Positions 10,925 through 44,061 are shown, counted from the stretch's first letter. The stretch: 44,061 nucleotides of DNA from Escherichia phage Dru_SM5 (PP920550.1), one strand, 5' to 3'. Notes: generated by a model not told the origin, from the letters alone. Translations and numbers: made by a program.

Positions 10925-11287
10925 ATGGCAAAAGCACCACTCTTCACACTTGACCCTAAGCCGACCTTTAAGCTGCCGATTGAGATCCCGCGCCCCGGTG
11001 AAAACGAACCGGGAAAAATGACGTTTACCGTGCGCCACCGCCCGATCGACGAATTTTCGCAGACCATGCAGGATACTGAGCGCAAGTTGTCGGAATATGA
11101 CGACAATGATCCTGACGGCTTTAACGTTATGGTCGAGGCCATCATGCACGTCGCAGAAGGCTGGAATCTGCCGGACGAATTTAACGCGGAGAACGTCCGC
11201 CGCCTGGTGGTCAACTATCCGCGCGCGTTCGGCGTGTTCCACACGTCGTACTATCTCGAACTGATGGGATTGCGTGAAAAAAACTAA
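10925..11287 (+). CDS. tail assembly chaperone (lambda gpG-like)
   Basis: ATG at 10925 follows a GGAG RBS. 120 aa, ends at a slippery A_AAA_AAC heptamer (11278-11284) just before the stop. Immediately upstream of the tape measure. Confidence 0.6.
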   Translation: MAKAPLFTLDPKPTFKLPIEIPRPGENEPGKMTFTVRHRPIDEFSQTMQDTERKLSEYDDNDPDGFNVMVEAIMHVAEGWNLPDEFNAENVRRLVVNYPRAFGVFHTSYYLELMGLREKN

Positions 11288-11601
11288 TTGAGGCGGCGCG
11301 ACGCTTTTATGGCCCGCCGCCACCCTCCGAAGATTTAGCCGCAAGTTTATGGGGTGCGGCCCCCGAAGATGTTTGTCCGCCTGTTGCGCTATGGCCCGAC
11401 AACGCGAAGGTAGTCGCAGTCTTCACAGATTGCTCCACGCAATGGCGCACCGGTTTTGGTGGCGCATACGGCATCGACTACGGCGTGCTGGAGTGGTTAT
11501 TTAAGATGCACGGTATCGAAAACGAGCAGCGCGCGTTTAAAGATATCAAGCTAATGGAGCGAATCGCGCTTGATGAGATGGCGCAGCAGAACCCCGCATA
11601 A
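10925..11601 (+). CDS. tail assembly chaperone -1 frameshift product (gpGT-like)
   Basis: The -1 frame after the slippery site stays open for 106 codons to TAA at 11599-11601 (checked codon by codon). A GGCGGCG...CGCCGCC stem begins 7 nt downstream of the heptamer. Confidence 0.55.
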
Positions 11602-11616
11602 TGAAGCGGGGCAGGC

Positions 11617-11637
11617 GGGACGTCCCGTTTTGTCCCG
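11617..11637 (+). terminator. terminator-like hairpin 1 (GGGACGTCCC palindrome + GTTTT)
   Basis: GCGGGACGTCCCG followed by TTTTGTCCCGCC, just after the frameshift-product stop. Confidence 0.4.
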
Positions 11638-11693
11638 CCTCTGTAAAACTGCATATCTACTCACTTCCACTGCATAAACTCAAAACGGGACAA

Positions 11694-11714
11694 GCGGGAC
11701 GTCCCGTTTTGTCA
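11694..11714 (+). terminator. terminator-like hairpin 2 (second copy of GGGACGTCCC + GTTTT)
   Basis: Near-identical GCGGGACGTCCCGTTTTGTC. Part of a roughly 76 bp tandem repeat with hairpin 1. Confidence 0.4.
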
Positions 11715-11734
11715 CGCCCTGTAAATATGCATAC

Positions 11735-11923
11735 CTATGCAGATTTCGTGCATAAACCAAACGGGACAGAAAGCGGGACAAACACGAGGCGGGACAAAAC
11801 GGGACAGCACCCCGTCCCCGCCAGTGCTGCCGCGGTTTTCAGCCGATCGGGACAGCGGGACAGCACCCCAGTCTTTCAGACTAGACGGGGGTCAATGGCC
11901 CCCCCTCGTCTGAGACTGAATAA
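11735..11923 (+). repeat. GGGACA-iteron + GC-hairpin element, copy A
   Basis: About 189 bp with TATGCAG..TGCATAAA, four CGGGACA iterons (11762-11808), two more (11849-11862), then conserved GTCTTTCAGACTAGACGGGGGTCAATGGCCCCCCCTCGTCTGAGACTGAATAA. Roughly 85% identical by eye to copy B. Confidence 0.8.
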
Positions 11924-11987
11924 GGTTTGTTTTGAAATCGCTGATACAATATCCATCGGCAACTGCATAAAAAAAGGGGACTGCATA

Positions 11988-33639: not shown

Positions 33640-35062
33640 TGCTTAAGTCCTCGTCAGTAGCTTCCGACCACGCAGGGCGCGGGTCGTCGATTGGTGCTAA
33701 CACCGGTTTGGCTGGTGCGCGCGTGATTTTATCACACAGCTTCGCCCACACTTTCGGTTTTTCGTCCTTCAGTACCTTCTCGGCATCCGTAGGGCTGAGC
33801 AATGTTTCTTTGTACATCACATCGCGCTTGATCCGGGCCTTCGTGAAGATTTCAATAACTTCGCTCTCGTCCGCCCACTTACGGATCCCTTCCTTACCGG
33901 CAACCATCTTGAGGCCCAGCGATTCGCCATCGCCCGCCATTACCGCTTTGAATACCGCGGACTCGATAGCTTTGATGTGCTGGCGCATTGCGTCCAGGCC
34001 TTCATAAGCCTTGCGCAGTTCCGCAGCGCTCATAGCGCCTGGGGCCGCTTCTTTCTTGCCACGCTTCGCACGTCGTGCCGCTTTGCGGGCTTCGCGGGCC
34101 ATATTGCGGTCGTGATTGGCGCATTCTTCCTCTGTCGCAATACTTACGTCGTCGCCCAGGTCTTCGTCTGTTGCCGTTGGTGGGGTCATCGTGTCGATTG
34201 CAGCCTTAGCGCGGGCGCTACACTGATCCGCAAATCTGCACCACTGACACGCATCAACGCTCGGTCGGAAGTCGGCACGGGTGAGTCCCTTTTTGCCGCG
34301 GGCGTACGCTTCCAGGGCGGCGATAGCACGCTTTGACGCAAACTTAGCGAATATCTCCAGGGCTTCTACCGAAATATCCCACTCCGACGCCCCGCCGCAA
34401 TACGGCTGGAAGATAACCAGGCGCACGGTCGTGATGTCGTACATGGATTGCAGCTTGCGCAGCAGGCCGAGCGCGTACAACATAAGCTGTTTGTTTTCTT
34501 TCGCCTCGACCTTATGCCGCCCGGTCTTCAGGTCGCCAACAATCAGCATGTACGTGCCGTCGGTCTTCTTCATGACCATGACCATATCCGCAGTGCCGAA
34601 CGTCTTAACCCGGTTGCCGTCGATCTCGAAGCCAGAGTGTAGGACGCGGGTGAGATCGGCGCGCATCTCAAGCTGAACAAACTCCGCCACTTCGAGGAGC
34701 GGTCGCCAGTGGTCGATGTACGCGTCGCACTGTTTCACCATGTCGTCGTTGACCAGTACGCCGCCTTTCGGTGCTTTCGGGTGGGCCTTTACAGGCCCCT
34801 TACCTTCGTTCTCGACGTAACACCCTTTGTACGTCTTAGCGGTTATCAGCTTCTCACCGGCGATAATACGGTTGAGCACGACTTCAGATACGGTGTGCAT
34901 ACTCGTACCGTTAATCGCCGCTTGCCCGGATTCGTTCGGGATACCCTGTTCTACCACCAGGGCGGCGGGGCAACCCATCCATTTTTTAGCACCGGATGGC
35001 CCGAGTAATGAATGTTCCGTATTACTACCGGATTGTGTTTTGCGCTTCGGTTTAATCGCCAT
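33632..35062 (-). CDS. PD-(D/E)xK nuclease with Fe-S Cys cluster (Cas4/RecB-like)
   Basis: 476 aa. N-terminal Cys (WMGCPA), PD-(D/E)xK-like core (GTADMVMV...IVGDLKTG...QLMLYALG), and C-terminal Cys triad CQWCRFADQC typical of 4Fe-4S Cas4-family nucleases. Long charged C-terminal extension. Confidence 0.55.
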   Translation of the reverse strand: MAIKPKRKTQSGSNTEHSLLGPSGAKKWMGCPAALVVEQGIPNESGQAAINGTSMHTVSEVVLNRIIAGEKLITAKTYKGCYVENEGKGPVKAHPKAPKGGVLVNDDMVKQCDAYIDHWRPLLEVAEFVQLEMRADLTRVLHSGFEIDGNRVKTFGTADMVMVMKKTDGTYMLIVGDLKTGRHKVEAKENKQLMLYALGLLRKLQSMYDITTVRLVIFQPYCGGASEWDISVEALEIFAKFASKRAIAALEAYARGKKGLTRADFRPSVDACQWCRFADQCSARAKAAIDTMTPPTATDEDLGDDVSIATEEECANHDRNMAREARKAARRAKRGKKEAAPGAMSAAELRKAYEGLDAMRQHIKAIESAVFKAVMAGDGESLGLKMVAGKEGIRKWADESEVIEIFTKARIKRDVMYKETLLSPTDAEKVLKDEKPKVWAKLCDKITRAPAKPVLAPIDDPRPAWSEATDEDLSNE

Positions 35063-35250
35063 TATTCCACCCTTGAAAATTGAGCAATGTAATAATCGTG
35101 TTCAACATTGGCCCGCTTCGCGGCATTGTTCATGGTAGCCGCCAGTCCTCGAGCTTGCATCCAGCAGCAATTCCAGTTTTGATCCATAACGATTTCTGGT
35201 TGCTCGTCGCCGGTAATACGGCAACGAAATAAAACAAAGAATATAGCCAT
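35062..35250 (-). CDS. hypothetical protein
   Basis: 62 aa ORF in a tightly packed operon; start/stop overlaps with neighbours. Confidence 0.35.
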   Translation of the reverse strand: MAIFFVLFRCRITGDEQPEIVMDQNWNCCWMQARGLAATMNNAAKRANVEHDYYIAQFSRVE

Positions 35251-35502
35251 TTATTTTGTCTCCCAGCGGTCAATTGTTTTTGCTTCGGATGCAACTGCGA
35301 AGCGAACATATTCCAGATTGGAATCAGCCCAAATATAAAAGTCTGGATTAATAAAGGTGGTGCGCTTAATTTGCGCGGGAGTATTGCGGCGTTTATCTAT
35401 TACGGCAACGCGTGACTGAAAGTTGCCGATGCGTTCGAATAGCCAATAATAAGGGCGTTGGTCGCGTGAATCCACCGCCTCGATTAGCGTGAAGCGTGCC
35501 AT
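35251..35502 (-). CDS. hypothetical protein
   Basis: 83 aa with RBS GAGGA, immediately after a terminator hairpin. Confidence 0.45.
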   Translation of the reverse strand: MARFTLIEAVDSRDQRPYYWLFERIGNFQSRVAVIDKRRNTPAQIKRTTFINPDFYIWADSNLEYVRFAVASEAKTIDRWETK

Positions 35503-35513
35503 TGTCTCGTCCT

Positions 35514-35543
35514 CTAAAAAGAGGCCCGCAGATTAGCGGGCCG
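35514..35543 (-). terminator. minus-strand intrinsic terminator / attenuator
   Basis: Minus strand: GGCCCGC-taatct-GCGGGCC followed by a T-run, then directly the RBS of the 35502 gene. Confidence 0.5.
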
Positions 35544-35550
35544 GAATACA

Positions 35551-36066
35551 TTAATCTTCCAGTTCGAAATAGGTTTCGACGATTTCTTTTAGCTCTGTGT
35601 GGAAGTCTTCGACGTCGTCATCTTCCAGCTTGGCGATTGATTTGATCTCGAACGATTCCAGCAGGTCGTCGAATTCGTCGTTCGCATCGTCGTCGTCACC
35701 ACCGGCAATAATCGCGGCATACTGTTTGATCTCGTCGCGCATCTCTGCCAGCGGATCGGCATCTTTCTTGCCTTTGCCTTTTGCCGGTGCTTTTTTAGAC
35801 TTAGCCGGTTTTTCATCTTCGGCATCGTCGTCTTCTTCTTCTACGACTTCTTTTTTGGCCTTACCCTTCGCCGGTGCTTTTTTAGCTTTAGCCGGTTTTT
35901 CGTCTTCGGCGTCATCGTCGCCATCTTCGACAACTTCTTTTTTGGCCTTAGACGGCTTCTTGTCTTCCTGCTTACCAACGGCAGCGCCAACGGTTTCATA
36001 ATGCTTTGCAATGGTTTCCAGTGCTACTACGCCGCGAGTGATCAGGTTTACGATTTGCTCAAACAT
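35551..36066 (-). CDS. zwitterionic repeat protein (first gene of leftward early operon)
   Basis: ATG at 36066 follows a GGAGA RBS (171 aa). Two tandem roughly 30 aa repeats of KKEVVE-DDDAEDEKPAK-KKAPAKGK-KK, encoded by roughly 99 bp tandem DNA repeats (about 35765-35960). Highly acidic C-terminus. Confidence 0.6.
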   Translation of the reverse strand: MFEQIVNLITRGVVALETIAKHYETVGAAVGKQEDKKPSKAKKEVVEDGDDDAEDEKPAKAKKAPAKGKAKKEVVEEEDDDAEDEKPAKSKKAPAKGKGKKDADPLAEMRDEIKQYAAIIAGGDDDDANDEFDDLLESFEIKSIAKLEDDDVEDFHTELKEIVETYFELED

Positions 36067-36406
36067 GGTATATCTCCGATTGGTTAAGTTTAGGTGTCGG
36101 CAGTTAACTTCGTCGGTGGCCTTAACATATTGCCAGGTTACGCGTTCTCCCGTTCGGGTAGTGGACCTGGTTATATAATCACGGTTGGGAATCCTGACAC
36201 TTCGATCCGTCCCCTGCGTTGCCCCTCTCCAGTTTGCGTCCTGCATCCTGTCGACGGAGTGAATGATAGATTGGTTGCAGGATGGGTGTCAACAACTAAT
36301 TTCAAAAAAAAGCGCCGAGGCAAAATGCACCGGCGCTAACCAATAAGAGACAATGAGACGGGAGTATTATTACACGCGTGCGCGCCCGTTTCAATATCCA
36401 AAGGAT

Positions 36407-36435
36407 TTGACACCGTGCAGTTTTGGGTGTAGTTT
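36407..36435 (+). promoter_or_regulatory. candidate rightward early promoter with operator-like palindrome
   Basis: TTGACA, 17 nt spacer, TAGTTT, followed by inverted repeat GTTGGT-catca-ACCAAC (36436-36452) and RBS CAGGAGA before the ATG at 36467. Confidence 0.45.
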
Positions 36436-36466
36436 CGTTGGTCATCAACCAACAGGAGACTGAATT

Positions 36467-36796
36467 ATGAATATCAAAGAAGCAATTGAAGTGTTATCTA
36501 ATGCAATCCGCGGCGAAGCGGGTAAATCCTGGTATTACACAAATGCGGTGGATACTCTGTTATTTGAAGTGTCCAGATTATCGCGTGCGGAGAAGGAGCT
36601 TACCGCGAAGCTGGAATTGCTCAACGGCACGGCAGCAAGCAAGCTGCAAAAACACAATGAAGAAATGGAAGAATACAAAAAGCAGGTTATCCGTTTGCGC
36701 AATGAGGGAAAGTCATGGGCAATGATCGCCGAGTTAACCGGAATTAATCAGAGCACAGTGCGCTCCTGGGTACGCAATAATAAAACTTCTAAGTAA
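36467..36796 (+). CDS. HTH DNA-binding protein (putative transcriptional regulator)
   Basis: 109 aa with a C-terminal helix-turn-helix-like segment GKSWAMIAELTGINQSTVRSWV. First gene after the early promoter. Confidence 0.55.
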   Translation: MNIKEAIEVLSNAIRGEAGKSWYYTNAVDTLLFEVSRLSRAEKELTAKLELLNGTAASKLQKHNEEMEEYKKQVIRLRNEGKSWAMIAELTGINQSTVRSWVRNNKTSK

Positions 36797-36806
36797 GGCC
36801 ACGGCA

Positions 36807-39071
36807 ATGAGCTTAATTAAATTCGCTGTAACACGACCCGCTAAAAAAGGCGAAAAAGCCAGGGCGGAAAACTTCCAGATGACTACCGAAGAGTTTTTCG
36901 AATTTATCAATGACGCGAAAGAAATCTCCTCGGTGCATATTAACAAAACGGAAGATAAAGCGGAGTATGCACGCCGCAAGCGTAAGGCCGATGGCATTGT
37001 GGCTTATACCAGTGACGGCTTACGTCGCAAGACCAGTGCGGTGGACCGCTCGATCCTGTTCTTCGATATCGACCGTACTGACACCCGCACCCTGCGCCGC
37101 TGCCGTAAGGCGTTCATCGACGCGGGACTGGAACATGTATTTCACACCACTACCGGCGACCGCCACCCGCTGAAAGGGGGCACGCGTTGCGCTCGTTTCC
37201 TGGTGCTCACCGATAAGCCTGTACCGGCTGAAGACCTGGGCCGCGTCCAGTATGCACTATTACACCAACTGGGTCTGTCAGATGTGGACTTCGACGATTG
37301 CACGAAAGACACAAACCGCCTGATGTACCTGCCACACCAGCAGTCTGTTATTAAGTGCCACTACGGCAAGCGTGCCCGCGTCCGTCGTCTGCTTCGCCTG
37401 GCTGATAAGCTGGGAATGGAAAAAGAGGAAGTACGACGCGAACTGACCCAGGGCGATGACGGCGTGGCGGACGGTATTCTGGATTGGTGCTTCCAGGCAG
37501 GATTCGAACCGCTGTCGTCCGGTCGTGGTTATGAAGTGCCATGCCCGAACGAACACCTGCACAGTGGTGAAGGGTCCACCGCTATCATGGTTAAGGATGG
37601 CGAGATCCGTTTCAAGTGTATGCACACCGGCAACGAGTGTTGCTCGGAACTGAACAGACACCAGCACCTGGCGCTACGTCTTATCGGGATCCCGGACCAC
37701 CTGAACGTCGAACCGCACAACATGTCACGTAAGCAAATCGCCGCCATCCTCCCAGGTCTGGACGACGAGGAAGTGGAATCGTGCTATGAACATATCGTTG
37801 ATGCGGTCGGAGACGGCGACGAGTACGGCGTGTGTACTGATGCAGACCTGGACAACGAGCCGGTCGCACTGTTCAGTAAGCACGACCCGATCATCGAAGG
37901 CCTGGTCAACTTCAAATCGACCTGGTATCTCGCCGGTGAGTCGAACATTGGCAAGTCGTTCTACGTGCTGGGCCAGATGGCGTCAGTATCTGCCGGTATT
38001 CCGTTCGGCGGTGCGAAGGTCGTCCAGTCTCATTGCTTCTATTTCGATGCGGAAGGTGGTGAGGCCCCCAACCAGCGTAAAGAAGCATTGCAGATTAAAT
38101 ACGAGCACGACCTGGACAAGCTGCACATTATAGACCTGCAGTCACGCGGCTGGGATATCACCAGCAAATCAGGCTTGCGCGAAGTTATCAGCTTTATCAA
38201 CCGCACCGCTAACGGCGAACCGGTTGGCCTGGTGGCGTTCGACTCACTCAACCAGACTGTTGCGTTGCGGTCCGCTGATGCTAAACCGTTCGACGAGAAC
38301 AACGCCAGCGATATGGGTGAAGTGGTCAAAGCGCTGAAGGCCATCGCGGAAAATACAGGTGGCAGTGCGGGCGTCATCCACCACCCGGCTAAAGGTGCAA
38401 ACGGCAGCAGAACCCCCCGAGGGTCCGGCGCGCTGCATGGTGCTGTCGATTCTGCGTTCTTCCTGGAACAGCCGGACGACAACCAGCCCGGACAATTGAA
38501 CCTGTATCATGAGAAGTCACGTAACGGCATCAAGCAAGCGCCGCGCGGCTTCGTCCTGCTCAAGTGCAAGGTGAAGGTGGATCTCCGCAAGTCAGAAGCG
38601 TTCGAGGCGCACCAGTCCACCAGCACCGGGCCAGACTTCGGCGACGTGGTTGCCGGATGGGACGTCAAGCCGATTGCCTCCACGCCACGCGACGAGACTC
38701 TCTACCTCGTACCGGTTGCCCTGGCACCGTTCGCTATTGAACAGGCGAAGGCCTCGGGCAAAGCAGCAGTTAAAGAAGAGAACACCGCCGGACCGCGCAA
38801 CGAAAAAGAGAAAGTGCTTTATGCGGCACTGGAAAAACTGATGGAAGATAACCCGGACCATACTGGATTCAGTAAATCGGCAATTGTCCGCCAGGCTGGG
38901 CTGGCAAAAGGTGGCACTTCGACGAAGGCAATCGACGATATGGTGGAGCGAGGAGTGATAGGTTTTTACACCGATCCGCACACTGGGGCCATCTATGGGT
39001 CGTCTAATTTGGTCATCAAATCGGATATCCCTATCACGCTTTCAGCGACCGATGACGACTTAAAAGATTAA
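36807..39071 (+). CDS. DNA primase/helicase (primase-polymerase-like N-terminus + P-loop ATPase)
   Basis: N-terminal FFDIDRTD (AEP/prim-pol-like DxD), a Cys/His zinc-binding segment, Walker A GESNIGKS and Walker B LVAFDSLNQ. 754 aa. Confidence 0.6.
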   Translation: MSLIKFAVTRPAKKGEKARAENFQMTTEEFFEFINDAKEISSVHINKTEDKAEYARRKRKADGIVAYTSDGLRRKTSAVDRSILFFDIDRTDTRTLRRCRKAFIDAGLEHVFHTTTGDRHPLKGGTRCARFLVLTDKPVPAEDLGRVQYALLHQLGLSDVDFDDCTKDTNRLMYLPHQQSVIKCHYGKRARVRRLLRLADKLGMEKEEVRRELTQGDDGVADGILDWCFQAGFEPLSSGRGYEVPCPNEHLHSGEGSTAIMVKDGEIRFKCMHTGNECCSELNRHQHLALRLIGIPDHLNVEPHNMSRKQIAAILPGLDDEEVESCYEHIVDAVGDGDEYGVCTDADLDNEPVALFSKHDPIIEGLVNFKSTWYLAGESNIGKSFYVLGQMASVSAGIPFGGAKVVQSHCFYFDAEGGEAPNQRKEALQIKYEHDLDKLHIIDLQSRGWDITSKSGLREVISFINRTANGEPVGLVAFDSLNQTVALRSADAKPFDENNASDMGEVVKALKAIAENTGGSAGVIHHPAKGANGSRTPRGSGALHGAVDSAFFLEQPDDNQPGQLNLYHEKSRNGIKQAPRGFVLLKCKVKVDLRKSEAFEAHQSTSTGPDFGDVVAGWDVKPIASTPRDETLYLVPVALAPFAIEQAKASGKAAVKEENTAGPRNEKEKVLYAALEKLMEDNPDHTGFSKSAIVRQAGLAKGGTSTKAIDDMVERGVIGFYTDPHTGAIYGSSNLVIKSDIPITLSATDDDLKD

Positions 39072-39182
39072 ATTCTGCGCGCATTGGTTGCCGATATGGG
39101 AATTCCCATATCGCTAAACGATTAATTTGTGCGCGTATTGGTTGCCATTTTGCGTGTTTTTATCTGGTCGTATTGGTTGCCG
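39066..39182 (+). repeat. direct repeats flanking a perfect 22-bp palindrome (origin- or operator-like)
   Basis: 27 bp direct repeats at 39066-39092 and 39120-39146 (GATTAAATTCTGCGCGCATTGGTTGCC and a near copy), a partial third at 39170-39182, and the perfect palindrome CGATATGGGAATTCCCATATCG at 39092-39113. Confidence 0.7.
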
Positions 39183-39206
39183 TGTAGTGTAAATATAATG
39201 AATAGT

Positions 39207-39393
39207 TATGCAGTTTTATTGCATAAAGTAAGCGGGACAGAAAGCGGGACAAACAAGAGGCGGGACAAAGCGGGACAGCACCCCCGTCCCGCCCCGGATG
39301 ACGCGGCCTGGCGAGGAGCGGGACAGGCGGGACAAACCCAAGTCTTTCAGACTAGACGGGGGTCCATGGCCCCCCTCGTCTGAGACTGAATAA
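39207..39393 (+). repeat. GGGACA-iteron + GC-hairpin element, copy B
   Basis: About 187 bp paralog of 11735-11923: TATGCAG..TGCATAAA, four CGGGACA iterons, two more, then a near-identical conserved hairpin block. A TATAAT box at 39195-39200 sits just upstream. Confidence 0.8.
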
Positions 39394-39548
39394 AATCCGG
39401 GGATTGCAAAATACACGGCAGCATGATGCGAAGGGCGGTCGTCGATGAACCAGGCAACCAATGCGGGTTGCATTATGCTGAGTGAAAAATGCAGTTTGCA
39501 GTTGCAGCAGATAGCGATCAACTTTTTCATGCGCGTGATTAATATTGG

Positions 39549-39577
39549 TTGCATTCAGCCTGGAGCCTTGATATATT
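39549..39577 (+). promoter_or_regulatory. candidate promoter for the 39606 operon
   Basis: TTGCAT, 17 nt spacer, TATATT, then RBS ATGAGGA and the ATG at 39606. The -35 hexamer lies inside an ATTGGTTGCAT motif. Confidence 0.4.
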
Positions 39578-39605
39578 GGTTGCACACCAACATGAGGACT
39601 GAACA

Positions 39606-39932
39606 ATGAGAGCGATTATCTGGAATTACGCAATGGCTATGGCGGCGGCACAAGAAGCGGCGGAGTTCGCCGGTGAAGGAGCGGAAGCGGTCGAAAGACT
39701 ATCGGCAGCGTGGTCCGTTGTTCGCGTTACGCAGCAGGCCATCGCCTGTATGCTGGAGCGCCGCTTCGACACTATGGCAGAGATTCAGCCACTGGCGAAC
39801 GCTATCCAGGATTACGCGCTTGCCTTTGCCCGTGAGCGCCTGGCGTATCGCTTCGGGATCGGCGAGACGGCAGTGACTAACGTCGCCCGGATTAAAGCCC
39901 AGCGTGAGCTATTCTCCCAGCTTGCGAAATAA
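39606..39932 (+). CDS. hypothetical protein
   Basis: 108 aa with RBS ATGAGGA. Ala-rich. Confidence 0.55.
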   Translation: MRAIIWNYAMAMAAAQEAAEFAGEGAEAVERLSAAWSVVRVTQQAIACMLERRFDTMAEIQPLANAIQDYALAFARERLAYRFGIGETAVTNVARIKAQRELFSQLAK

Positions 39933-43974: not shown

Positions 43975-43993
43975 AGGCGACCAGTAACCCTCA

Positions 43994-44021
43994 CAGCCCG
44001 CCGATTTGGTGGGCTTTTTTG
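43994..44021 (+). terminator. intrinsic terminator
   Basis: AGCCCGCC-gatttg-GTGGGCT followed by TTTTTT. A TATAAT box follows at 44028-44033. Confidence 0.55.
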
Positions 44022-44061
44022 TGCCTGTTATAATCCCCCTTAGATGGCAGGGCCGTCTCCT

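Follow-up and report, generated by a model that had tools for sequence, protein, structure and literature searches.

The window analysed here is a stretch of 44,061 nucleotides from Escherichia phage Dru_SM5 (PP920550.1), a Dhillonvirus-type phage with an E. coli host. A 535-bp noncoding gap lies 3' of its primase-helicase gene, and an earlier sequence-only reading of positions 39066–39605 had suggested that it was a replication origin or a complex early control region. All the features listed in that reading are present where it had placed them, and the motifs occur far above chance. The gap is a genuine conserved control region, comprising a promoter, a probable packaging start and one of two matching repeat modules that resemble a replication origin. 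Its features, together with those of the flanking genes and of the related gap elsewhere in the genome, are the following.

36807–39071, + strand: primase-helicase gene, 754 aa, with a RepA-like AAA_25 core (Pfam AAA_25, E = 1e-19)
38769–39068: predicted winged-helix domain, last ~100 residues of the primase-helicase; candidate iteron binder
39061–39092 and 39115–39146, + strand: two 32-nt direct repeats, 88% identical, 54 bp apart
39083–39091, 39137–39145 and 39172–39180, + strand: three CGYATTGGTTGCC sites, with no -10 at promoter distance downstream
39093–39114, no strand: perfect 22-bp palindrome CGATATGGGAATTCCCATATCG; lineage-specific, non-conserved
39169–39190, + strand: partial third copy of the direct repeat, from a repeat-family search
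39186–39397, + strand: copy B module (AT-rich segment, iteron array and dyad); candidate origin-type nucleoprotein site
39188–39227, no strand: AT-rich 40-mer, 80% A+T, at the 99.97th percentile of genome 40-mers; possible DNA-unwinding element
39194–39199: TATAAT, within the AT-rich 40-mer
39206–39226: hairpin TTATGCA-N7-TGCATAA, inside the AT-rich 40-mer
39232, 39244, 39260, 39270, 39318 and 39327 (span 39232–39334), + strand: iteron array of six GCGGGACA
39287–39291: inverted GTCCC in the iteron array
39341–39387, no strand: long imperfect dyad, AGTCT-TTC-AGACT, then GACGGGGG..CCCCCCTCGTC, then GTC-TGA-GAC
39416–39422, + strand: CGGCAGC (motif CGGCA[A/G]C), 3' of the dyad, found across genera in both modules
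39454–39462, - strand: inverted ATTGGTTGC site (GGCAACCAATGCG), conserved
39455–39472: inverted repeat GCAACC-aatgcg-GGTTGC
39504/39505, + strand: putative physical genome end, the first headful (pac) cut, with packaging rightwards
39544–39608, + strand: predicted promoter of the downstream operon, with its translation start, from sequence and lineage comparison
39544 and 39575, + strand: ATTGGTTGCA boxes of the right-end promoter
39549–39554, + strand: -35 TTGCAT, with a 17-bp spacer to the -10
39572–39577, + strand: -10 TATATT
39594–39598 and 39606, + strand: ribosome-binding site GAGGA and ATG
11590–11987, + strand: region A, the noncoding gap from the tail chaperone gene to the true tape-measure start (ATG 11988)

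Left-end repeats and the copy B module

Single-nucleotide indels are spread across the region in relatives, indicating that it is noncoding, and those that break the frame rule out a small peptide across the dyad. A tRNA scan of the region returned no genes. Rfam gave no matches there at gathering score, and the single match at E<1 (19.9 bits against a cut-off of 45) fell on the variable left part and is not credible. A generic promoter and terminator scan likewise yielded nothing useful in the region, missing the right-end promoter because its TTGCAT, a non-canonical phage -35, equals TTGACA at just three of six positions.

At the left end, the direct repeats described earlier as 27 bp long, 54 bp apart and followed by a partial third copy were found again (measured as 32 nt), as was the perfect 22-bp palindrome. 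The 54-bp unit at 39061–39114 is an insertion/duplication polymorphism missing in 8 of 16 close relatives. The palindrome, where present in relatives, often carries uncompensated mismatches and is perfect in 3 of the 40 loci fetched. These comparisons show both the 54-bp repeat unit and the palindrome to be dispensable indels. One to three CGYATTGGTTGCC-type sites, in either orientation, lie 3' of the primase stop in all lineages examined. Along with the 54-bp duplication and the palindrome, the three TTGGTTGCC sites count as variable, accessory elements outside the core. The suggestion that the 27-bp repeats are iterons does not hold, as they are mostly copies of the genome-wide promoter-linked motif considered below.

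The element that the sequence-only reading had called copy B of an iteron/hairpin element was confirmed at 39186–39397, where it aligns with copy A (11713–11927) at ~82% identity. Orthologues of the modules are 94% identical and paralogues 82%, which points to shared selection and not to recent conversion. The AT-rich stretch containing a consensus TATAAT is present as described; the TATAAT is lost in Ioannina, L035 and L033, and some relatives have the hairpin loop in flipped orientation. Ten copies of GCGGGACA were counted, where 2.18 were expected, all of them inside modules A and B. The iteron sites are invariant among relatives while the spacers drift, and iteron copy number varies: SM_S22 has 14 GGGAC/GTCCC pentamers, and UDS3lw carries a duplication of 127 bp. 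Since the sites occur in both orientations, their target is probably double-stranded DNA. The adjoining dyad is G+C-rich, with DNA-fold z-scores of -3.0 to -4.2 across six lineages. Its arms differ in sequence in L037 and eiAU with complementarity retained, and its loop is variable in relatives. RNAalifold detected modest covariation on the dyad (5 pairs, single sequences each), a weak signal because MAFFT handles palindromes poorly, and per-lineage folds were used instead.

The right-end promoter and the packaging end

The TTGGTTGC core occurs 20 times in the whole window, against 1.75 +/- 1.28 in shuffles, and most copies lie just 5' of a ribosome-binding site and ATG, oriented with the gene. 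In the region, the + strand carries ATTGGTTGC at 39083, 39137, 39172, 39544 and 39575, and the - strand carries it at 39454. The ATTGGTTGC motif is thus a genome-wide promoter-linked motif and not a local iteron. It is common to Dhillonvirus, Eiauvirus and a Guernseyvirinae phage, and in 9 of 56 box sites across three genera TTGCNN is followed at 16–18 bp by TAnnnT (background 2.9%), with a spacer of exactly 17 bp in eight of the nine. The inverted repeat GCAACC-aatgcg-GGTTGC, also noticed earlier, is present, although its second arm, GGTTGC, is not conserved.

At the right end, the TTGCNN-17-TAnnnT geometry is found in 8 of 8 diverged lineages, and the spacer varies in sequence among relatives and is constant in length. 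These comparisons support a sigma-70-type promoter that incorporates the ATTGGTTGCA motif and is conserved. A host sigma-70-type promoter would accordingly be predicted to drive the operon starting at 39606, its -35 TTGCAT lying inside the phage-wide ATTGGTTGCA box and a second such box overlapping the -10/+1. The ATTGGTTGCA box is probably also bound by a phage regulator, for which a conserved 109-aa protein with a sigma-70-region-4-like helix-turn-helix (36467–36796) is a candidate. Against this small protein as the binder, eiAU keeps the TTGGTTGC motif yet has a different small helix-turn-helix protein at the syntenic position. Among host factors, none of the consensus sequences compared (sigma-54, DnaA, IHF and others) fits TTGGTTGCA. 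Our literature search found no Dhillonvirus transcript-mapping study. A comparable arrangement has been described in the T1-like phage TLS, where ~20 intergenic copies of a 21-nt motif are oriented with transcription, which is carried out by host RNA polymerase; the function of these repeats is unproven (PMC11447400). Like the TLS repeats, the ATTGGTTGCA box recurs phage-wide in intergenic positions and is oriented with transcription; unlike them, it has another sequence and, in a subset of sites, provides the -35 hexamer at exactly 17 bp from the -10.

At least seven independent GenBank records (Zar3M, UDS3lw, SP1, BMA1, PTXU06, WFI and Pandora71) begin at the base equivalent to 39505, with the sequence CAGCAGATAG. 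Genomes have been linearised at abrupt read ends (Korf 2019), and PhageTerm has classed UDS3lw and BF9 as "headful with pac" and Opt-212 as headful; counting against this, one paper predicts a 5' cos at another position in EE09. From the record starts and these brief published method statements, we infer that 39504/39505 is the site where virion DNA ends pile up, that is, the first terminase cut of headful packaging. Packaging would begin there and run rightwards. The small terminase gene, terS, has its own extended -10 promoter 3' of a terminator. The predicted helix-turn-helix of its product, FA..IGVGVAC.YRWAR, is shared by lineages whose iterons are GGGAC and those whose iterons are GTGCCA, and this constancy across iteron switches suggests that terS reads a conserved sequence and not the iterons.

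Paired modules and iteron switching across genera

Region A holds the paralogous module at 11713–11927 and extra GGGAC/GTCCC palindromes upstream of it. Its iteron set is larger than that of module B, its AT-rich flank is much weaker, and in Dhillonvirus it lacks a TTGGTTGC box. Two modules per genome, built on lineage-specific short repeats, are found in Dhillonvirus, Eiauvirus and a Guernseyvirinae phage. The two homologous modules of eiAU carry the iteron TCGCCCCG, C-rich on the sense strand, and the two of VLCpiS11a carry TTGCGAGT in mixed orientation. Even among relatives 67–69% identical the iterons differ (GGGAC, GTGGCA, GTGCCA and GGTGCCA) on an unchanged architecture. The position of the second module differs between genera, lying in VLCpiS11a between the head-morphogenesis and scaffold genes. 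All 158 matching phage records are Dhillonvirus-like, a few with other host labels, and none of them places a module copy outside this phage group.

In the record of Sodalis phage SO-1 (NC_013600), the orthologous loci are annotated as repeat_region features "region A" and "region B". The depositors' note, in the excerpt available, describes them as direct, inverted and palindromic repeats that are mutually similar, with a "possible ..." function. The SO-1 entry is a database note; here region B is split into a promoter, a putative packaging end and an iteron module. The literature searched contained no such dissection of regions A and B, no cross-genus comparison, no functional work on them and no mapped origin for any of these phages.

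The protein most likely to read the iterons may be the neighbouring primase-helicase itself. An AF2 model of its tail has the order H1-b-H2-H3-b-wing-b, with a mean pLDDT of 76 (~80–91 in the helical core), and Foldseek matches it to the winged helices of MarR, H1 and Rio2 at probabilities >0.9 with E >= 0.01, hits that are generic and of weak E-value. The full-length protein retrieved 325 homologues and its C-terminal 220 residues alone none; the primase-helicase sequence had no matches among PDB chains. The winged-helix tail varies with iteron type while the recognition helices of terS and of the small helix-turn-helix protein stay constant, a correlation drawn from few lineages and confounded by phylogeny. 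A charged 231-aa early protein (35551–36246) was rejected as iteron binder, being K/E/D-rich, of low complexity and conserved whatever the iteron type.

Dhillonviruses and their relatives are among the most often isolated coliphages, and both therapy work and screens of defence systems make use of them. No origin, pac site or promoters are annotated for them, and automatic pipelines place spurious small ORFs in the gaps. Annotation and engineering would gain from having the promoter box and packaging start defined and an origin/initiator pair open to testing, for instance when safe insertion sites are chosen or packaging-competent vectors built, and iteron switching on a constant scaffold offers a natural series for initiator/site co-evolution.

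The origin reading and its alternatives

The anatomy of the region, its conservation, the geometry of its promoter and the shared record starts are established. With a probability of roughly 0.5, we interpret the gap as a three-layer control hub composed of the right-end promoter, the packaging end at 39504/39505 and a central origin-type module. Of the two halves of the earlier proposal, the control region is borne out by the conserved sigma-70-type promoter at the right end. The origin is plausible but unproven, and depends on the copy B elements and not on the 27-bp repeats and palindrome that had been emphasised. The origin-like signature lies within copy B, in its AT-rich segment, its GGGAC(A) iterons in both orientations and its conserved dyad; as in iteron origins, the short direct repeats are element-specific and, in module B, adjoin an AT-rich segment. 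The paralogous second module, the lineage-specific switching of iterons and the winged-helix tail on the neighbouring primase-helicase add weight to this reading, and we rate origin function of the region at somewhat less than an even chance. The cumulative GC skew that had been suggested as a check has its minimum at ~36 kb, in a divergent promoter gap, and not at 39.1–39.6 kb, and so gives the region no support. Its maximum lies at ~23 kb and both extremes fall at gene-strand switches; because skew tracks gene strand and is confounded by transcription, the test is weak either way.

The most likely mechanism for the modules would be an origin-type nucleoprotein complex, for which we infer protein binding, unwinding, initiation and a role for module A. 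The C-terminal winged helix of the primase-helicase would dock on the iterons; the protein would then open the AT-rich DNA beside them in module B, load onto it and start priming. The role of module A could be that of a second origin or a bound roadblock or partner site, comparable to SPP1 oriL/oriR or P4 ori/crr. More broadly, and as a tentative proposal with the odds rather against it, Dhillonvirus, Eiauvirus and Guernseyvirinae phages, together a large set of Enterobacterales siphoviruses, may share a two-site replication system. One primase-helicase-initiator would read lineage-specific 5–8-bp iterons with its C-terminal winged helix, at modules located by its own gene and in the structural operon, with a specificity re-set repeatedly (GGGAC, GTGGCA, GTGCCA, GGTGCCA, TCGCCCCG and TTGCGAGT) and a primary origin no more than ~110 bp from the packaging start. 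If so, that proximity would couple replication, packaging and operon transcription in a 0.5-kb hub.

The modules might instead be transcription-control arrays for an activator, repressor or roadblock protein that sets late-gene expression, module B acting where the rightward operon begins and module A before the tape-measure and tail genes. Both do lie at operon-start or operon-internal places in a co-directional late block, promoter-linked TTGGTTGCA boxes are densely packed in the region, the second module changes position among genera, and in eiAU a strong terminator 5' of module A means that the downstream tail genes need a new start. We consider this unlikely, however, given that no -10/-35 is conserved at a fixed distance from the iterons, the TATAAT at 39194 is lost in the three relatives named above, the Dhillonvirus module A is devoid of the box, terS already has its own promoter, and the sole candidate DNA-binding domain that varies with iteron type sits on a replication protein. 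Recognition of the iterons by the small terminase, with the centre-right of the region acting as an extended pac site, is a distinctly poorer prospect. The pac sites of P1 and SPP1 have repeated boxes flanking the cut, and the putative packaging end here is ~110 bp 3' of module B; but the terS helix-turn-helix does not change with the iterons, module A has iterons without the sequence around the cut, and in VLCpiS11a and eiAU the second array is far from terS.

Two further explanations are less probable still. Copies A and B could be transcribed from the TATAAT at 39194 into a structured noncoding RNA, such as a put-like RNA acting in antitermination or one serving as a protein sponge; both are oriented with transcription, their sense strand is purine-rich and contains GGA, and their RNA folds are stable, with z-scores of -2.6 in B and -3.9 in A. 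This we regard as very improbable, as no family in Rfam matches, the putative -10 lacks conservation, structural conservation is limited to the dyad, and the mixed iteron orientations, together with the C-rich sense strand of eiAU, fit recognition of double-stranded DNA. A CsrA-sponge or put-like RNA specifically for the GGGACA repeats was dropped for the mixed orientation in other genera and the non-conserved -10. Selfish or neutral repeats without function, whether MITE-like insertions or recombination scars, have the least chance of all. They would account for the variable copy number and internal duplications, for one record that joins A to B and for the inverted TTGGTTGC-containing arms flanking module B, yet the architecture is kept across genera with no remaining nucleotide alignment, invariant iterons sit between drifting spacers, orthologues are closer than paralogues, and the 158 matching records hold no copies outside the phage group. 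Nor does module A have terminal inverted repeats or target duplications; the arms around B are TTGGTTGC boxes, absent around A, and the boundaries fade gradually.

The closest parallel to the preferred origin-type reading is the Bacillus phage SPP1, whose circular map carries two similar repeat-plus-AT-rich origin regions separated by 13–16 kb, of which one lies at the replication-initiator gene and the second interrupts the late structural genes (PMC6316719). SPP1, whose oriL and oriR are bound by gp38, is a virulent siphovirus of ~44 kb that packages headfuls from a pac site, as the phages here would do, and the second module of VLCpiS11a occupies the same relative place as oriR. The phages differ in that nothing here is homologous to gp38, gp39 or gp40 at the sequence or protein level, the putative initiator would form one polypeptide with a RepA-like primase-helicase, the iterons measure 5–8 bp, the module includes a long G+C dyad, and binding and initiation are predicted. 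In the satellite phage P4, the alpha protein unites primase and helicase in a single polypeptide with a winged-helix domain at its C terminus that binds the origin, and it recognises short iterons in ori and crr, two cis sites lying apart from each other. The helicase class here differs from that of alpha, being AAA_25/RepA-like, and the structural match is to generic winged helices.

Genomic context and content of region B

The Dru_SM5 sequence is a complete Dhillonvirus-type (HK578/SO-1-like) genome of 44,061 bp from a virulent E. coli siphovirus, with a gene order that agrees with annotated relatives such as Bas84. A 901-bp query around region B, the gap at 39066-39605 following the primase-helicase gene, matched 156 phage records, mostly at 90–95% identity. 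The genome is laid out as follows:

1-23.5 kb, + strand: terminase, head and tail genes, ordered as in relatives
23.5-36.2 kb, - strand: T7-like replication block (family A polymerase, Gp2.5-like SSB, exonuclease, SNF2 helicase)
36467-36796, + strand: small HTH gene
36807-39071, + strand: primase-helicase gene
Right of region B, + strand: small genes, then lysis genes

Region B is real and biologically meaningful, and its elements belong to known kinds: a promoter box, a putative pac site and an iteron-type origin candidate. The GenBank record of phage SO-1 already labels a 'region A' and a 'region B', describing them as repeat regions that resemble each other and giving their role as 'possible ...'. 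Region B is non-coding. Scattered 1-nt indels separate relatives across it, a tRNA scan of it found no tRNAs and an Rfam search of it returned no credible match. Pipelines annotate several small 'hypothetical proteins' within region B and region A, the gap before the tape-measure gene (in Bas84, L019, at 11149-11620 and 38970-39481); these are spurious, since relatives carry indels there. An in-frame ATG at 11601 also apparently lengthens the tape-measure ORF by 129 codons (11601-11987), through region A.

The features described in the sequence-only reading are present: 32-nt direct repeats (given earlier as 27 bp) at a distance of 54 bp, plus an incomplete third one, a perfect 22-bp palindrome (39093-39114), TATAAT at 39194, and a copy B that matches copy A (11.7-11.9 kb) at ~82% identity. 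Counts of TTGGTTGC (20 observed vs 1.75 expected in the window) and GCGGGACA (10 vs 2.18, all 10 within the two modules) exceed chance. The 54-bp unit is entirely missing in half of the close relatives, the palindrome often has uncompensated mismatches in those that carry the unit, and both repeat and palindrome are dispensable. Past the primase stop, more distant relatives carry between one and three TTGGTTGCC sites, in either orientation and with no -10 at promoter distance; these are conserved, putative accessory binding sites.

Paralogous modules and their conservation

Copy B (39186-39397) begins with a stretch of 80% A+T that ranks within the top 0.03% of the genome and holds the hairpin TTATGCA-N7-TGCATAA, the loop of which is inverted in some relatives. 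Four forward GCGGGACA and a single inverted GTCCC follow; after a variable spacer come another two GCGGGACA and a long dyad (AGTCT-TTC-AGACT / GACGGGGG..CCCCCCTCGTC / GTC-TGA-GAC). Iterons and dyad arms are invariant among relatives; loops and spacers drift. Copy A (11713-11927) lies in a non-coding gap of 400 bp that separates the tail chaperone gene from the true start of the tape-measure gene (11988), and has additional GGGAC/GTCCC palindromes. Identity is 94% between orthologous modules vs 82% between paralogous ones, and shared parts are therefore kept by selection, not recent gene conversion. In SM_S22 (L041), module B carries an A-type spacer, implying a putative A/B exchange, and a 110-bp tandem duplication; region B of UDS3lw (L022) has a 127-bp internal tandem duplication, and the two duplications almost double the number of GGGAC sites.

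Relatives with 67–69% identity retain the boxes, AT-rich hairpin, split iteron array, AGTCT-N3-AGACT, G+C dyad, CGGCA(A/G)C and promoter. On this constant scaffold the iterons differ: GGGAC (L033, L039), GTGGCA (L034, L036), GTGCCA (L037) and GGTGCCA (L038). The dyad fold is significant in each lineage (DNA z-scores -3.0 to -4.2), and the dyad folds in L037 and eiAU despite different arm sequences. In eiAU, VLCpiS11a and Shemara the primase-helicase is only 44–49% identical; synteny and a 0.5-0.9-kb gap after the gene are retained, as is the box TTGGTTGCA (variant TTGGCTGC in Shemara). These gaps have their own short repeats: TCGCCCCG in eiAU, TTGCGAGT in both orientations in VLCpiS11a and GGGGGAGA in Shemara. 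A second homologous region lies ahead of the tape-measure gene in eiAU, and between the head-morphogenesis and spanin/scaffold genes in VLCpiS11a.

Several minor features accompany the modules. Among close relatives (L002-L016) the hairpin at 39206-39226 has a 7-nt loop reading GTTTTAT or ATAAAAC, a short inverted segment delimited by the arms of the stem. The spacer between the iteron-array halves keeps GATTTATAAGGA(G) in L036, L037, L038 and both eiAU regions (L031), with a G+C-rich spacer in its place in Dhillonvirus proper. CGGCA(A/G)C, at 39416-39422 and 11952-11958 in the window, occurs in one to three copies on the downstream side of the dyad in all lineages and genera examined, whatever the iteron type (seen in the window, L033, L036, L037, L039 and both VLCpiS11a modules). 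The 16.5-kb record of phage JLBYU27 (L021, OK272475.1) joins tail genes before A to small genes after B via a single module; it represents either a genome recombined or deleted between A and B or a collapse of the assembly at the repeat. Metagenomic contigs L034 and L038 both stop inside region B, and L034, at 27,589 bp, is about as long as the interval from A to B in the window (~27.3 kb), which suggests that assemblers break at the two paralogous modules.

Promoter box and probable packaging end

The ATTGGTTGC repeats, of which region B holds six, had been taken for local 'iterons'; they are instead a genome-wide promoter box with 20 sites, mostly intergenic and oriented as the downstream gene, several with an RBS and ATG 20-60 nt downstream. 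Taking TTGCNN of the box as -35, TAnnnT was found at 16-18 bp in 9 of 56 sites from the window phage, eiAU and VLCpiS11a (at 17 bp in eight of the nine), vs a background of 2.9%; many other sites come directly after a TAnnTT hexamer. The right end of region B contains:

39549-39554: -35, TTGCAT
39572-39577: -10, TATATT, 17 bp after TTGCAT
Downstream of TATATT: GAGGA, then ATG at 39606

Boxes and hexamers are fixed among 16 close relatives, with the 17-bp spacer variable in sequence and constant in length, and the first box lies exactly 17 bp from TAnnnT in 8/8 lineages (primase identity down to 67%) even though the second box shifts. Such a pattern is the signature of a sigma-70-type promoter whose -35 region is unusual and specific to the phage. 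In addition, a phage factor probably recognises the box. A candidate is the adjacent sigma-70-region-4-like HTH protein, whose recognition helix is identical across the Dhillon-like lineages; eiAU, however, keeps the box yet has a different HTH at the syntenic position. The box is comparable to an unexplained 21-nt intergenic repeat in the T1-like phage TLS (PMC11447400).

Seven independent records (Zar3M, UDS3lw, SP1, BMA1, PTXU06, WFI and Pandora71) begin at CAGCAGATAG..., equivalent to 39505, and terminate just before that base. The simplest reading is a first terminase cut at 39504/39505, ~110 bp right of module B and 40 bp left of the promoter. Korf 2019 placed linear genome ends where reads stop abruptly. 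PhageTerm described UDS3lw as 'headful with a preferred pac site' and BF9 as headful (pac), and Opt-212 was called headful; for EE09, a 5' cos close to terS, the small terminase gene, was predicted in one study. That predicted cos, ATCTTAAGGG, corresponds to CCCTTAGAT in the window (~43985-44045), where a strong intrinsic terminator (CCCGCCGATTTGGTGGGCTTTTTTGTG) precedes an extended -10 (TGTTATAAT) immediately upstream of terS.

The origin question and candidate iteron binders

The proposal that region B is a replication origin is partly right, on grounds other than those first offered. The module architecture matches iteron origins: an AT-rich segment adjoins the iterons, the arrangement is duplicated at a second site and the product of the adjacent gene joins a primase-helicase to a tail that is likely to bind DNA. 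One analogue is P4 alpha with ori/crr. The closest verified precedent for the two-module layout is SPP1, which has two repeat-plus-AT-rich origins ~13 kb apart, one in the initiator gene and the other interrupting late genes (PMC6316719); initiator bound at the second origin has been proposed to make forks stall and so bring about the change to concatemer synthesis (PMC6316719; PMC3485210). Our literature search found no origin mapping or functional study of regions A or B. Cumulative GC skew, suggested earlier as a check, has its minimum at ~36 kb and maximum at ~23 kb, exactly at gene-strand changes, and does not single out region B. We put the probability that region B is a replication origin at about 0.4.

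The mixed orientation of the iterons favours a double-stranded-DNA-binding protein over RNA. Poor candidates for the iteron binder are the small HTH protein and the terS helix-turn-helix, both of which stay conserved between lineages with different iterons. Within the primase-helicase, variability is greatest in the last ~100 residues, which form a predicted winged helix modelled with a mean pLDDT of 76 (about 80-91 in the helical core); its structural matches are generic (MarR/H1/Rio2, probability >0.9 but E >= 0.01). Its helix-2/turn motif SKSAI..QAG..KGGT is common to GGGAC lineages only, a suggestive but phylogenetically confounded tracking of iteron type.

To the left, the leftward early operon opens with a gene (35551-36246, - strand) for a K/E/D-rich, highly charged protein that has an acidic tail, is conserved in relatives and gives no informative Pfam match. 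The adjoining divergent promoter gap (36247-36466) separates the replication block from the HTH/primase operon; it carries one ATTGGTTGCA box, sits in the genome's lowest-G+C stretch at the 2-kb scale (35001-37000, GC 0.47) and coincides with the cumulative GC-skew minimum.
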